Source: Longimicrobiales bacterium
GTDB lineage: Bacteria; Gemmatimonadota; Gemmatimonadetes; Longimicrobiales; Gaopeijiaceae
Length of the DNA: 64,000 bases
Assembly: GCA_965218295.1 (NCBI GenBank)
Contig: CBDCKN010000014.1
Location: 107,770 to 171,769, forward strand
Direction of reading: 5' to 3'
Positions 2,413-12,895 of this stretch are shown here, piece after piece. The notes beneath the pieces were generated by a model, which had not been told where the DNA came from, did not search any database, and worked only from the letters and a program-made list of their open reading frames with translations. Made by a program: the position numbers and the translations under genes. Every line of letters begins with the position of its first letter. The first letter of the stretch is position 1.

Positions 2413-2880
2413 GTGCTAGTTCAAGTCGGTGTGGATAGCCTCGGGTTGGACCGGAAGACCAAGATGCCCGTCGTCGTTCTCAAAGAGGAAGGCGGGGAGC
2501 AAGTGCTCCCCATTTGGATCGACCCCAATGAGGCCAGCGCCATTGCCAGGGGGCTCACCCAGATGAAGTTCTCCCGTCCACTGACCCACGACCTCCTAGT
2601 CTCCGTGTTGGAGAGCCTGGGCGGAGAACTCGAGAAGGTGGTCATCGGTCCGGTGGAGGGAAATCTTTTCTTCGCTGAGATGATCATGCGCCGACACGGA
2701 GAGGTCATCTCCATCGATGCGCGCCCGTCCGACTCAATAGCAGTCGCATTACGTATGGAGGCCGAGATCTTCGTGCACAGCGATCTGCTGGGCCCCGCCT
2801 CCGTCGAGTTGGCGGAAGATCAACCGTCTGCTACACATAGATTCCAATACAATCCATACGTGTCTGATAAGATTCTATAA
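2413..2880 (+). CDS. bifunctional nuclease (DUF151) family protein; last 17 aa supplied by the integrated element
   Basis: Motifs LPIWI, RPLTHDLL, IDARPSDSIAVA. Confidence 0.9.
   Translation: MLVQVGVDSLGLDRKTKMPVVVLKEEGGEQVLPIWIDPNEASAIARGLTQMKFSRPLTHDLLVSVLESLGGELEKVVIGPVEGNLFFAEMIMRRHGEVISIDARPSDSIAVALRMEAEIFVHSDLLGPASVELAEDQPSATHRFQYNPYVSDKIL
2818..2826 (+). repeat. attL core
   Basis: GATCAACCG, in frame as Asp-Gln-Pro of DUF151. Confidence 0.8.
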
Positions 2881-2988
2881 CTAGAGCTATTACAATGAGT
2901 TATGTAGGACACGCCCGGTTGCACTGTCGCTGTGTGTCCACTATGTTCCCGTACATGACATACGATACTTTATACGGGGACTCCCGAA

Positions 2989-4194
2989 TTGGATTTGCCC
3001 AAACACCGAGGCAGGCGCCCGCATAACGCACTCAGCGCGGCCTTCGTGCGCAGCGCCAAGCCCGGATACTACTGCGATGGGAACGGCCTCTATCTGCGTG
3101 TGGACCGATCGGGCGCGCGCCGATGGGAGCAGCGTCTGCGGATCCAGGGTCGAAACCGCACGCTGGGGCTCGGGGGCTACCAGCTGGTATCGCTGGCCGA
3201 GGCGCGCGAGAAGGCATTCACGAACCGCAAGATCGCGCGCTCGGGCGGTGATCCGCGTACCGAGCGGCACAAGGTCCGGGACATGCCCACGTTCGCCGAA
3301 GCGGCCGCCGGCGTTCTGGAACAGCTCCGGCCGGGCTGGCGCAGCGCCAGGCATGCGAAGGACTGGGTCTCCAGCCTGCGCGTCTACGCGTTCCCACAGC
3401 TGGGCCATCGACCGGTCGGCGAGATAACGACAGCCGACATCCTGGCGGTGCTGACACCGATCTGGCACGCCAAGCAGGTGACTGCCAGACGGGTGCGCCA
3501 GCGCATTGGGGCGGTGATGAAGTGGGCGGTGGCGATGGGGCTTCGGCCGGACAACCCCGCCAGCGATGTGCTCGGTCAAGCGCTTGGCCGACAGCGCGTC
3601 GTAGTCCGGCACATGCGCGCGTTGCCTCACTCGAAGGTCGCGGGCGCGATGGAGACGGTGCGGAAGTCGCACGCTTACCCGGCCACGAAACTCGCCTTCG
3701 AGTTCCTGGTGTTGACGGCGGCCCGCTCGGGAGAGGTTCGCTCGGCGCACTGGGATGAAATCGACCTGGAGGCTCGAGAGTGGACGGTTCCCGCCGAACG
3801 CACGAAGGCCCATCGCCCCCACAGGGTGCCGCTGTCCGGGCGCGCCGTGGAGATACTGAGCGAGGCGCGGACGCTCGGGGGCGGCAGCGGTCTCGTTTTC
3901 CCGTCGCCGGAGGGCCGCGCATCTGCCCACAGCAGACTCTCCACGCTGCTTCGAGACCTGGGTATCGCGGCCGTGCCGCACGGCTTCCGGTCGAGCTTCA
4001 GGGACTGGTGCGGCGAGTGTTCCAACGCACCGCGTGAAGTCGCCGAGGCCGCGTTGGCGCATGCGGTTCGTAACAAGGTGGAAGCTGCCTATGCGCGTTC
4101 GGACCTGTTCGAGCGCAGGCGCGTCCTGATGGACAATTGGGCTGCGTATCTGGCGGGCGAGCGTCTGGACCCGGAGGCCGAACCGGCTCGCTGA
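2989..4194 (+). CDS. P4-type tyrosine integrase with N-terminal arm-binding domain
   Basis: DGNGLYLRV...SLAEAREKA arm domain; catalytic R (ARSGE), K, HGFR, LAH, Y. Confidence 0.95.
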   Translation: MDLPKHRGRRPHNALSAAFVRSAKPGYYCDGNGLYLRVDRSGARRWEQRLRIQGRNRTLGLGGYQLVSLAEAREKAFTNRKIARSGGDPRTERHKVRDMPTFAEAAAGVLEQLRPGWRSARHAKDWVSSLRVYAFPQLGHRPVGEITTADILAVLTPIWHAKQVTARRVRQRIGAVMKWAVAMGLRPDNPASDVLGQALGRQRVVVRHMRALPHSKVAGAMETVRKSHAYPATKLAFEFLVLTAARSGEVRSAHWDEIDLEAREWTVPAERTKAHRPHRVPLSGRAVEILSEARTLGGGSGLVFPSPEGRASAHSRLSTLLRDLGIAAVPHGFRSSFRDWCGECSNAPREVAEAALAHAVRNKVEAAYARSDLFERRRVLMDNWAAYLAGERLDPEAEPAR

Positions 4195-4299
4195 TCCGCC
4201 GCGCTCGCAGTGTCGGCGGACGAGTCCGTCAGGCGCTGAAGAGCAGGGGCGCGAAGGCTGGCTCACGACCCGTATGTGGACGCCCCCCGGGTTGGCAAG

Positions 4300-4500
4300 C
4301 CTGACTTCGAACCGAGGTTGGTGGCAATCAGGTCCGGTACTGTCGTATGTCCGGCCTCTTGATGCAGCCCTCGTTGGCTGCGGGCCCGTATGGTGTTCGT
4401 GAGATCGGATCCAAATCGTTAGGTCGGGCTCGGTGGCCCTTCGGGTCATCCTGGTGTTTCCGATCCCGTCTTCCAGACCGTTTGCCCTTACTCGTTCTTG
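4300..4500 (-). ncRNA. putative bridge RNA / seekRNA of the IS1111-type element (boundaries approximate)
   Basis: Stem 4403-4409/4459-4465 encloses segments matching both halves of the insertion site; a second segment (4344-4350) matches the donor junction. Confidence 0.7.
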
Positions 4501-4564
4501 CGTCCTGCTGCCCACATCTCCCAGCAGCTTTCTCTGTTTGCGCTTCTCTCCTTTCATTGGCCGG

Positions 4565-5587
4565 TCAGGCGGCAGCGCGAACCCGATGGATCTCCTTCTT
4601 CGTGGTCAGCGCCCAGACCATCCGCGCCGTCCTGTTGGCGAGCGCCACCGCGACCAGCATCTTCGGCTTGCGTGCCAGCATCCTGGCCAGCCACGGATCC
4701 GTGATCTCGCCGCGCCGGATCGCGTTTTGGACGACCGCCATGGCTCCCGTGATCAAGAGCCGCCGGAGATCGCGCTGGCCCATCTTCGATATCCTGCCCA
4801 GCCTCGGCTTGCCGCCGGTGGTGTGCTGCCGCGGCACAAGGCCGAGCCAGGCCGAGAAGTCGCGCCCGCGCCGGAAGCTCTCCATCGGCGGTGCGAAGGC
4901 CTGCAGTGCCATCGCGGTGATCGGTCCGATTCCGGGGATTGTCATCAGCCGCGCCGTCTCTTCGCGCTCCCGTGCGCTCGCCCGGAGCTTCCTGTCGAAT
5001 CCATCGATCTTCTCATCGAGCTCGTCGATCCGCCCGAGCAGCAGCCATCCCAGCTCGACGACCGCCTCCGGCAGGCCGACGTCCCCGTCTTCCAGCACCC
5101 AGGCCAGTTGCCCGATCCGGGCCCTGCCCTGCGGAGCAACAACTCCGAACTCGGCGAGGTGACCCCGAAGGGCATTGATCGTCTGTGTGCGCTGGCGCAC
5201 CAGCAGGTCACGCGTGCGAAAGAGCATCCCCTGACCCTGCTGCGCTTCGGTCTTGACCGCCACGAAGCGCATGGTCGGACGCTGTGCGGCTTCCGAGATC
5301 GCCTCCGCGTCCGCCGCGTCGTTCTTCTGCCTCTTGACGAAGGGCTTCACGTAGATCGGGGGAACCAGCTTCACCTCGTGACCGAGGGCCACGATCTCCC
5401 GGCCCCAGTAGTGGGCGCCGGCGCATGCCTCCATCGCCACCGTGCAAGGCGGCTGCGCGGCGAGAAAACTCAGCAGCTTCCCGCGGCTCAGCTTCCTGCG
5501 GTACGCTACCGACCCGTTCGCCTTCGCCCCGTGTACCTGAAAGCTGCGCTTTGCCAGATCGATCCCGATGATGCTAACCTCCTCCAT
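4565..5587 (-). CDS. IS110-family DEDD recombinase/transposase
   Basis: GIDLAK, MEAC, KNDAADAEAI, IPGIGP, WLGLVPRQ..GGK, VALANR motifs. Confidence 0.95.
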   Translation of the reverse strand: MEEVSIIGIDLAKRSFQVHGAKANGSVAYRRKLSRGKLLSFLAAQPPCTVAMEACAGAHYWGREIVALGHEVKLVPPIYVKPFVKRQKNDAADAEAISEAAQRPTMRFVAVKTEAQQGQGMLFRTRDLLVRQRTQTINALRGHLAEFGVVAPQGRARIGQLAWVLEDGDVGLPEAVVELGWLLLGRIDELDEKIDGFDRKLRASAREREETARLMTIPGIGPITAMALQAFAPPMESFRRGRDFSAWLGLVPRQHTTGGKPRLGRISKMGQRDLRRLLITGAMAVVQNAIRRGEITDPWLARMLARKPKMLVAVALANRTARMVWALTTKKEIHRVRAAA

Positions 5588-5784
5588 TGGATGCCTCCTC
5601 CCTCAGATGGTCGATATCGCTCAGTACCATCTTGGCACATTGCGATGCCGCCGGGAGGGGGCGTCCACCCCATCGTTAGCAGTCATGAGCCAGCCTACCC
5701 CTTGGGGCCACGCTTCGCGGGTCCCCGGCAGGGGCTGGCGAGGGGCTGGGCCCCCTCTGACCCCCCCAACGGCAACAGCGCATC

Positions 5785-5892
5785 ATGAGCGCTGGACGCG
5801 CCGTGTGGGTGAAGATCCGCGCCAGCGAGGCGGAGCCTGCCGAGTGGCACGCTAAGGCGCGCTCCGCAGGCTTGACGCTGTCGGATCTGGTG
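5785..5892 (+). pseudogene. truncated MobC-like relaxosome accessory (ribbon-helix-helix) protein
   Basis: VWVKIRASEAEPAEWHAKARSAGLTLSDLV resembles a MobC N-terminus; runs into unrelated AT-richer sequence; no relaxase downstream. Confidence 0.6.
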
Positions 5893-6034
5893 CTGCGGAT
5901 TCAGCCTTTTGACACAGTACAAATAGGGCATGGAAACAATGCAATTATGCTATTGACGAGACGGTTTCAGCGAGCCCAAGATTTCCGTTGAAATCGCTGC
6001 TGGACTCCCATCTTTCGGACATTCAGGAATCCGA

Positions 6035-6373
6035 ATGAGCTGTCACCGAACCATCATCCGGCTGTCAGCGGTGCTAGCGGTTGTGGCCTTGGCCACGGGG
6101 TACGGGGACGGTGACAGCCCTGCCGCGCCTCCAACGCCAGAGCCCGCCCGTCCGACGAGTGCGGGTAGCGGACAGGGAACGGCAGACCTGGACCGTGCGG
6201 CGCTGGTCGCGCTCTACAACGCGACGAACGGGCCGAACTGGACCAACAATGACAACTGGCTGGCCGACGTGCCGCTGGAGGAGTGGTACGGGGTGGTGAC
6301 GGGCAGTGACGGGCGTGTTACACGACTCTCTCTGTGGGAGAACAATCTCACCGGCCCGATCCTCCCGAACTAA
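6035..6373 (+). pseudogene. truncated secreted leucine-rich-repeat protein
   Basis: Signal peptide, then DRAALVALYNATNGPNW...WYGV...GRVTRLSLWENNLTGPI (LRR N-cap plus first repeat), then stop. Confidence 0.75.
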
Positions 6374-6550
6374 CCACATATTATGTAACCGACATTATCA
6401 CAATATGTTAGAACATGTGGCCGCAAATGATGTATCACTCAGGATATACATTTCTGAGCGAGATTCCATGGGACCCAACCGGATGTCGGTGGATCAGATT
6501 CTGGTGATTGCCGCAGGCCAAATGCTACTGCCTGAGATCAGGATCGGCAG

Positions 6551-11664: not shown

Positions 11665-12895
11665 TGTACAGAGATGGTAATGACCTGACAGTTGGCCCTC
11701 GCCGGAGCTGTGTCTAGGCTGCCTTCGTCTTAGCCTCCTCCTTCCTGGCCTTTGCGGCCTTCCTGGCGTCGGTGAGACCGGCCTTGAAGACCTGATAGGG
11801 CGTGCGGCCCTCCATGGCTCGACCGCGGTGCGGCCGCTTCCGGTTGTAGGTCTCCAGATACGCCTCGAGGTCCTGCTGCATCTCCTCGACGGTCTCGTAC
11901 CAGGTGGTGCGGCCCTTCACCCTCAAGTGCTCGTCGAGGAGCGTGCGGTGGAAGCGCTCGATGAAGCCGTTGGACTGGGGCCTGCCCACCTTCGTCGTGC
12001 GGTGCTCGATGTCCTCGAGCTGAAGGAACAGCTCATATGGGTGACGGTCCGGACGGCCGCAGAACTCGCGGCCGTTGTCGCTGAGCACGGTCTTCACCCG
12101 GACCCGGTGCTCATCGAAGAACGGCAACACGTCGTTATTCATCACCTGCACCGCCGTGAGCGGGAGCTTGCTCGTGTAGAGCCGGCCCCAGGCGTAGCGG
12201 CTGAAGCAATCGAGCACGGTCTGCAGGTACACCTTGCCGACCCCCTTCAGCGTTCCGACGAAGAACGTGTCCACGGCGACGAGGTCGCCCGGGTAATGGA
12301 CTTCGATGTGGCGCTCCCGGAACTCGGGACTGAAGCGCTCCAGCAGCTCGATCTGCTCGTCGGTCAGCTTCAGCTTCCGTTCCCTGGCCGTCTCTTCGAG
12401 CCTGAGCAGCCGTTCGTGCTTCGTGGTGAGGCCATGCCGGCTCCACACGCCCCGTACGCCTCCTGAGCTCACCTGGATCCCTCCGAGCAGCAACTCGTCC
12501 GCGACCCGCTGAGCTCCGTGCGTCGGAGCCTCCAAGGCGTGGGCCAAGACCGCCTGCTCAATCTCTTCACTCACCCGGTTCGGGTGCGGTCCCTTCGGCC
12601 CCGGAAGCTGGTCGATCAGCCCCTCGGCCCCGTAAAGCTGGAAGTTCCTCCTGATCTCGTAGAACTGCTGCCGGCTGTAGCCCACGATCTTGCACGCCTT
12701 GCTCACGTTGCCGAGCTCCTGGGCCAACTGTAGCAGGCTCAGCTTGCGGCGCGCTATCTTCTCCCCCTGGACGGTGGTCATCTTCTCTCCCGTGCTAAGT
12801 GAGTGACTTCGACATCTCTCAATTAGCTCCGGCGAGGGCGGCTGGCCACCGTCCTCTCTCGTGGTCAACTGTCAGGTGAATACCGTCTCAGCACA
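11665..12895 (-). mobile_element. IS481 family element, copy 1 (1231 bp)
   Basis: TGT...ACA ends with ~33-bp imperfect TIR; flanks ggcggca/cacggca match only partly; same sequence as 59186-60416. Confidence 0.93.
11714..12781 (-). CDS. IS481 family transposase
   Basis: HTH N-terminus, rve core (VDTF, SDNGREF, PQSNGFIERFHRT); likely start MTTVQG. Confidence 0.93.
   Translation of the reverse strand: MTTVQGEKIARRKLSLLQLAQELGNVSKACKIVGYSRQQFYEIRRNFQLYGAEGLIDQLPGPKGPHPNRVSEEIEQAVLAHALEAPTHGAQRVADELLLGGIQVSSGGVRGVWSRHGLTTKHERLLRLEETARERKLKLTDEQIELLERFSPEFRERHIEVHYPGDLVAVDTFFVGTLKGVGKVYLQTVLDCFSRYAWGRLYTSKLPLTAVQVMNNDVLPFFDEHRVRVKTVLSDNGREFCGRPDRHPYELFLQLEDIEHRTTKVGRPQSNGFIERFHRTLLDEHLRVKGRTTWYETVEEMQQDLEAYLETYNRKRPHRGRAMEGRTPYQVFKAGLTDARKAAKARKEEAKTKAA

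Follow-up and report, generated by a model that had tools for sequence, protein, structure and literature searches.

The window analysed here, a stretch of 64,000 nucleotides from a Longimicrobiales bacterium, contains an IS1111-family insertion sequence within a larger integrative element. The insertion occupies the loop of an inverted repeat of 15 bp, between a tyrosine integrase gene (2989-4194) and a mobC stub (5785-5895) of the host element. The features of this locus are as follows:

2989 to 4194, plus strand: 401-aa tyrosine integrase encoded by the host integrative element, with domains PF13356, PF22022, and PF00589
4255 to 4269, no strand: left arm of the target hairpin in the host element (inverted repeat I8, 14 of 15 bases complementary)
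4271 to 4272, plus strand: core dinucleotide CG at the right-end junction, the target-derived copy
4273 to 5675, minus strand: complete IS1111-family element of 1,403 bp, the core copy at its left end (5675-5674) included
4276 to 4287, no strand: subterminal inverted repeat of the right end, 12 bp, followed outward by a 3-bp terminal extension (4273-4275)
4293 to 4298, minus strand: predicted -35 hexamer of the circle-junction promoter, whose -10, TACGAT, arises only across joined ends
4565 to 5587, minus strand: recombinase (transposase) gene, 340 aa, with residues D10, E53, D90, and D93 and the catalytic loop GLVPRQHTTGG
5657 to 5668, no strand: subterminal inverted repeat of the left end, 12 bp, followed outward by a 7-bp terminal extension (5669-5675)
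5674 to 5675, plus strand: core dinucleotide CG at the left-end junction, the donor-derived copy
5682 to 5696, no strand: right arm of the target hairpin in the host element (inverted repeat I8)
5688 to 5700, minus strand: likely MOBP5 (ColE1-type) nick motif, identical to that of pAsa3 and a near match to ColE1
5785 to 5895, plus strand: truncated mobC (NikA-like) remnant of about 37 codons (PF21983, E 2e-4, below the cut-off)

As far as can be judged from its sequence, the insertion sequence is an intact IS1111 member, with all the features of the family that are open to such testing. The subterminal repeats are perfect over 12 bp (11-13 bp in IS1111), the terminal extensions measure 7 bp on the left and 3 bp on the right as expected for IS1111, and the recombinase gene is followed by a long non-coding region of about 290 bp and preceded by 88 bp, again the IS1111 arrangement. 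The features of IS110 proper (IS621 type), namely an RNA upstream of the gene, repeats that are absent or only 2-3 bp long, and a serine nucleophile, are not those of this element. No relevant Rfam family was detected at E<=5 in 2500-6500, and no tRNA or tmRNA in the window.

The element had previously been delimited in a sequence-only reading, whose observation on 4273-5675 is confirmed. The empty site that it proposed, cacgacc-CG-ttagcag, exists without interruption in a paralogous element on contig C3 of the same genome (G000:C3 ~555,599), and two contigs of the outside run X1 skip exactly 1,403 bases (4270 to 5674); the junctions of the element were set by these two observations. Since target and donor have CGT in common, it is the covariation among homologues described below, and not this locus alone, that fixes the core at two nucleotides. 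On the gene strand, the core of 78 representative relatives is TG in 48, CG in 25, AG in 4, and CA in 1. When the two junctions were compared in 97 elements (L134 left out), a non-donor core at the right end together with the donor core at the left was found in nine, three of which are copies of one element and one of which may be an end duplication; the reverse was found in none, and both in one. This asymmetry (9 vs 0) is what cleavage of the top strand on the 3' side of the core would be expected to produce (PMC11208158). The earlier description of an intact programmable recombinase with a CG core is supported with respect to protein family, ends, and RNA fold, but not as a strict demand for CG in targets, given that 9 of the 97 elements sit at another dinucleotide.

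The recombinase contains both domains of IS110/IS1111 recombinases (PF01548, E 1.9e-16; PF02371, E 2e-23) in a 340-aa frame without stop or frameshift, and all four acidic residues (D10, E53, D90, D93) are kept. Its size and the loop GLVPRQHTTGG fit the IS1111 pattern of 330-350 aa and a GL-P----S/T-G motif. The predicted model (pLDDT 86) has its best fold matches in 8wt6, 8wt9, and 9t56 (IS621 and ISCro4; TM ~0.63, 18-20% identity), and searches of the PDB returned no solved structure nearer to an IS1111-type recombinase than these. In an alignment to IS621 and ISCro4, Thr257 of the loop, which reads HTTGG, corresponds to Ser241 of IS621; of 176 loci, 136 have Thr at position 257, 38 have Ser, and 2 have Ala, and Thr at position 256, as in the window element, is present in 26. 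A literature search on the threonine nucleophile of IS1111 recombinases found nothing relevant. The residue was considered as a possible novelty and rejected as such, because SG or TG at the catalytic position has already been described for IS1111 (PMC11187229).

The non-coding region downstream of the recombinase gene is predicted to encode a bridge or seek RNA, in which a closing stem encloses a target-binding arm and a multiloop donor-binding part:

4331 to 4480, minus strand: predicted bridge/seek RNA core, with closing stem 4480-4473 / 4337-4331 and approximate ends
4344 to 4350, minus strand: right donor guide ACATACG, 7 of 7 to the right end plus core
4390 to 4396, minus strand: left donor guide ACACCAT, which matches the left end at 6 of 7 bases, with the core not read in register
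4401 to 4467, minus strand: target-binding arm, with outer stem 4467-4459 / 4409-4401, an inner stem from 4454, and an internal hairpin from 4439
4415 to 4422, minus strand: right target guide CTAACG plus the predicted handshake bases AT, which are the first two bases of the left end of the element
4442 to 4449, minus strand: left target guide ATGACCCG, which fits the left target and core with seven matched bases and a single G-U wobble

Three of these guides and part of the arm had been noticed before, and each was recovered here: the stem arms 4403-4409 and 4459-4465 are exact complements, ATGACCCG is present on the minus strand at 4449-4442 with one wobble to the target, CTAACG at 4422-4417 is the reverse complement of the right side of the target, and ACATACG at 4350-4344 is complementary to the donor junction. 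The left donor guide, the handshake bases, the multiloop stem, the catalytic threonine, and the identity of the target near a likely transfer origin are additions of the present analysis. The single-sequence fold of the RNA region is modest (z -1.94); the consensus fold of the relatives has 24 pairs, 18 of which show compensatory changes. Four pairs of the closing stem are kept in 71-77 of 78 representatives and a fifth in only 30, and the guides are displayed in loops of this conserved secondary structure, as in bridge RNAs.

It might be argued that such matches arise by chance, or as a by-product of sequence copied from the flanks, while the protein itself drives targeting. Each match is indeed short, and when the 275-nt non-coding end was shuffled 20,000 times with its dinucleotides preserved, the guide motifs appeared individually in 2.9%, 3.5%, and 1.2% of the shuffles; all three together, by contrast, occurred in none of the 20,000, and their positions are fixed in a covarying structure. 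In addition, 14 of 45 mismatches between guides and sites are wobble-type differences. With the guide-flank and donor covariation presented next, this explanation appears largely refuted and we consider it extremely improbable.

In all, 190 loci were compared, of which 176 encode a relative of the recombinase, 99 include both ends with at least 12 flanking bases, and 98 are usable, giving 78 distinct guide pairs; 78 of the 176 loci were dropped for want of both ends with flanks or of a usable alignment. Guides were compared with flanks in 2,000 permutations in which the best register was allowed for both guides and relatedness was ignored. Over the 78 guide pairs, and with kinship thus disregarded, the right target guide agrees with the flank of its own element at 4.68 of 6 non-core bases (1.69 after permutation, maximum 2.13) and the left target guide at 5.17 of 6 bases (permuted 2.87, maximum 3.21). 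The RNA bases that read the core are the same as the left-end core in 78 of 78 representatives for the target arm and in 76 for the donor part. Even the closest relatives, with 86-92% amino acid identity, each have different target guides that fit different flanks. The sequence-only reading had named homologues with different targets and the same loops as evidence against itself and had proposed covariation of target and donor across homologues as a check; guide loops were found to change with the flanks, even at 86-92% protein identity, and both target guides as well as the right donor guide covary. Its interpretation of the locus as a guide-carrying IS1111 element is thus supported by comparison of homologous sequences.

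The donor side is less uniform. In 76 of the 78 representatives (24.5 on permutation), the right donor guide is identical to the terminal five bases of the right end, following seven different right-end/core sequences. For the left donor guide, the variable position covaries in 44 of 78 (21.1 when shuffled) and is the mismatched position in the window copy, and position -6 shows no covariation among the 78 representatives (50 vs 50.3 permuted). In 68 of 78 representatives, the dinucleotide after the right target guide is the one with which the left end begins (AT/AT), and in 1 of 78 it is that of the target; the handshake bases of the donor loop covary weakly with the target (26 of 78 vs 15.0), with no match in the window copy. 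A variant of the mechanism may be considered here, in which only a target arm trimmed to about 70-90 nt out of a longer RNA is needed, the protein recognises the ends chiefly by their subterminal repeats, and the role of the donor-matching bases is small or of another kind. For transposition of ISEc11, an RNA of 82 nt was enough (PMC11187229), and the left donor guide of the window element is short, imperfect, and without the core. Nevertheless, a right donor guide that tracks right ends in 76 of 78 cases and a left one that covaries at its variable position need selection on pairing, and such a target-arm-only arrangement seems unlikely.

On the basis of these observations, it is very probable that the locus holds an intact IS1111 element with guides to its own target and its own ends, which is likely to insert as a circle, guided by RNA, into a hairpin beside a likely transfer origin, in the manner of IS621 and ISEc11. 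Read-through transcription would first supply a little recombinase and RNA, and the ends would be joined into a circle. When the ends are joined in silico, TTGCCA (4298-4293, minus strand) comes to lie 18 bp before TACGAT, as previously noted, and this junction may serve as a promoter that drives both gene and RNA. Its geometry is conserved in 75 of the 78 representatives, with a spacing of 17 bp in 73 and 18 bp in 2 (no -35 match in 3), so that the 18-bp spacer of the window element is unusual for its family. The target arm would then read both strands of the site through ATGACCCG and CTAACG, the guides that covary with the flanks, and the donor multiloop would read the joined ends through ACACCAT and ACATACG. 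By analogy with IS621, composite RuvC/Tnp sites would cut the top strands just 3' of the 2-bp core, here with a threonine as the presumed nucleophile, after which the strands would be exchanged and re-joined. The AT handshake bases would pair only after this exchange and would thereby favour insertion. The promoter scan revealed no sigma-70-like promoter in the linear region and one terminator-like match at chance level, and no circle joint was present among the joints listed for the contigs of four runs, which drop rare forms. Three RNA runs gave only unstranded contigs of relatives, mostly less than 95% alike; as these contigs provide neither strand nor ends nor level, they are uninformative on expression either way.

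An identical second copy of the element is present at G000:C13:198351-199754. The two copies have 185 bp of left and 70 bp of right flank in common without a difference (window 4087-4272 and 5676-5745; G000:C13 ~198166-199824), in surroundings that are otherwise 76-96% identical, and the integrases of the two occupied host elements are only 87.5% identical. Identical flanks within diverged host elements suggest co-conversion, and the two copies are probably one insertion that has been spread by recombination. Two independent insertions in this genome were considered and rejected as unlikely, given those flanks. An orphan 53-bp left end, 92% alike, was observed at G000:C13:493728-493780, and a decayed fragment of this IS family, comprising gene end and non-coding sequence, at G000 C3:549056-549197.

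It could also be that the window copy is complete but silent or weak, having been inserted once; paralogous host elements would then have passed it to the second site through homologous recombination or gene conversion, without the action of its own enzyme. The identical flanks past both ends would fit such a history, as would the matching target site on C3, a perfect site that stays empty, the 18-bp spacer, and the lack of a circle among the joints listed. Against it, the frame has no stop or frameshift, the four acidic residues and perfect repeats are retained, and a sister with 92% identity has three identical copies at three unrelated sites in another genome (G002). Although this account is compatible with the guided mechanism preferred above, a silent copy is somewhat unlikely in our view.

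The host element belongs to a multi-copy family of chromosomal elements that encode a tyrosine integrase and a mob operon of ColE1 type (window 2818-5895; G000 contigs C3, C6, C9, C12, C13, and C15), which are mostly decayed and mosaic and have varied cargo, such as a type I methyltransferase. The integrase at 2989-4194 has 20 tblastn matches in the genome, and an intact mobC paralogue with a relaxase is found on contig C9. Paralogues of the host element carry mobC, a relaxase gene (30-32% identity to MbeA, E 1e-23 to 1e-26), and within the latter mobB (match to MbeB, E ~1e-7; the match to MbeD is weak, E 0.28). A nick motif upstream of mobC and an MbeA-type relaxase, the marks of MOBP5, thus occur together in these paralogues. 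Both occupied host elements are without an intact mob operon, and the window copy retains only the nick motif and the mobC stub. At the left edge of the host element, a gene with a bifunctional nuclease domain (2413-2880, plus strand) overlaps it with its 3' end, and an insertion sequence with an rve integrase lies further along the window (11714-12868, minus strand).

All 13 bases of the motif at 5688-5700 recur ahead of mobC in the MOBP plasmid pAsa3, and ColE1 1464-1474 nearly matches them. The genome has 17 occurrences of the motif, and in a search of 101 genomes, 17 of which had any match and some by chance, a 14-letter form was counted 16, 13, 11, and 5 times in four related genomes in which this IS clade is also present. 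By analogy with the nick position of ColE1, the nick is predicted on the minus strand between 5690 and 5689, 14 bp from the insertion sequence. With that position, the insertion sequence would lead in transfer. The ColE1 nick position was not found as text in two articles (PMC9282650, PMC5935869). Free sites that fit the guide pair number only two in 3.57 Mb, both of them copies of this hairpin, with wobble and a variable second core base allowed; nothing in this genome outside the hairpins of the integrase-mobC-relaxase element family fits the pair. The hairpin could therefore offer a multi-copy, non-coding landing site in which insertion would leave the nick motif intact, and the target likely adjoins the transfer origin of this repeated element, judging from the motif and its gene neighbours.

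Alternatively, the hairpin may be a terminator or regulatory repeat after the integrase gene that is chosen as a repeated stem-loop, like REP or attC, with the closeness of the nick motif being incidental. The integrase stop lies about 60 bp before the hairpin, some copies of the nick motif are without the left arm (such as C3:271129 and C12:216742), and a target stem-loop improves insertion of ISPpu10 (bioRxiv 10.64898/2026.03.19.712850). However, the right arm overlaps the motif common to the pAsa3 and ColE1 origins, and a lineage with 61-63% amino acid identity has a guide that reads the nick motif itself. We regard this explanation as a real possibility, albeit one that we lean against, and retain a target beside the transfer origin as the likely one.

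The closest named homologues come from Gemmatimonadota/Longimicrobiales assemblies, and holders of the clade include sponge metagenomes. Two related lineages insert into the same host-element family as the window element. In the 61-63% identity lineage (loci L228, L232, L241/L244, and L248), whose RNA scaffold is near-identical to that of the window element, the left guide reads the nick motif, and insertions at the motif are found in G001, G002, G037, and G058. Empty sites of this lineage's subtype, with core CC rather than CG, were seen at G000 C3:292503 and C13:194526. As for the 92% sister, one of its three copies lies in the first codons of a small frame after mobB, at the position of mobD, although similarity to MbeD is weak; at L082/L233 (G002:C4:580782-582186), in the same host-element family, its left guide is shifted by one base. 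Some other relatives target the end of a repeat, and some what is presumably the end of an IS21-type transposase gene. An 87% lineage (L002, L003, L084, L103, L234, L236, L239, L242) is always found at the terminus of one long GC-rich repeat with different outer flanks. In acidobacterial relatives (L008, L015-L021, L023), the left end and RNA are kept, and a repeat-rich stretch stands in place of the right subterminal repeat, which is absent at its usual distance.

A sister with 86% amino acid identity occurs twice inside the donor-binding loop of other IS1111 bridge-RNA genes (L235, G058:C2:525776-529795; L237, G058:C2:534646-538665). Its guides match the invaded loop at 9 of 10 and at 7 bases; its own loop differs at three of the positions that the guides read, and the window element has a matching site at 4360-4343. 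From these cases a broader proposal may be drawn, which we offer tentatively and with more doubt than conviction: bridge-RNA elements of sponge-associated Gemmatimonadota may have been programmed repeatedly onto the transfer region of one mobilisable element family (the window element 14 bp beyond the nick, in the part that a recipient would receive first, the 62% lineage on the nick motif, and the 92% sister on the mobD start). The oriT would then represent a novel class of target, selected by RNA, through which an element gains horizontal transfer, and the sister that reads bridge-RNA donor loops would be an RNA-guided parasite of RNA-guided elements. This hitch-hiking story is weakened by the lack of an intact operon in both occupied host elements and by the probable origin of their two copies in one insertion.

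RNA-guided recombination by IS110/IS1111 elements has already been published under the names of bridge and seek RNA (PMC11208160, PMC11187229). ISEc11, ISKpn4, ISPst6, and ISPa11 resemble the window element in the downstream non-coding region, 11-13 bp subterminal repeats with 7 and 3 bp extensions, an enzyme of 330-350 aa with GL-P----S/T-G, a junction promoter (predicted here), the guide order with the transposase-strand complement first, and a hairpin-type target as for attC and REP (PMC11187229). The window element differs from them in its guides and target and in donor-matching bases found by covariation. With IS621 and ISCro4, it has in common the fold (TM ~0.63), the DEDD residues, four guides, a 2-bp core, and an AT handshake matching the donor (PMC11208160, PMC11208158, PMC13626964), the handshake pattern being known from IS621 (PMC13626964, PMC11208158). 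Its recombinase, on the other hand, is only 18-20% identical to theirs, its RNA follows the gene whereas theirs precedes it, the donor part is a multiloop, as noted for IS1111 by Durrant et al. (PMC11208160), the core is CG instead of CT, Thr replaces Ser, and the left donor guide is without the core. Single-strand, copy-type excision and half-match events have been reported for IS621 (bioRxiv 2026.08.31.748434) and may apply to the window element too.

Since the mechanism is established, the window element is in itself one more orthologue. Its value lies in a clean natural data set: the clade offers cores of CA, CG, and CT, guides with registers of 8-11 nt, mismatches tolerated in the core, and threonine as the nucleophile, and it is useful for choosing and designing IS1111-type recombinases. 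Targeting of mobile elements and of hairpins by this family is known. Among the matches listed, no literature title or abstract start mentions oriT as an IS110/IS1111 target. Compared with the ColE1/pAsa3 MOBP5 region, which likewise has a nick-type motif upstream of mobC, followed by a relaxase gene with mobB inside, the host mob region is located on chromosomal tyrosine-integrase elements, and both copies that bear the insertion sequence have lost the operon. IS4321/IS5075 (Tn21 terminal repeats) and the IS1111-attC group (PMC11208160), as well as ISEc21 on IS3 transposase genes (PMC11187229), are similarly specialised on conserved sites of mobile elements; unlike in these, the target of the window element adjoins a likely relaxase nick motif, and such an oriT-side target, together with a sister that targets bridge RNAs, raises testable questions on the spread of these elements and the competition between them.
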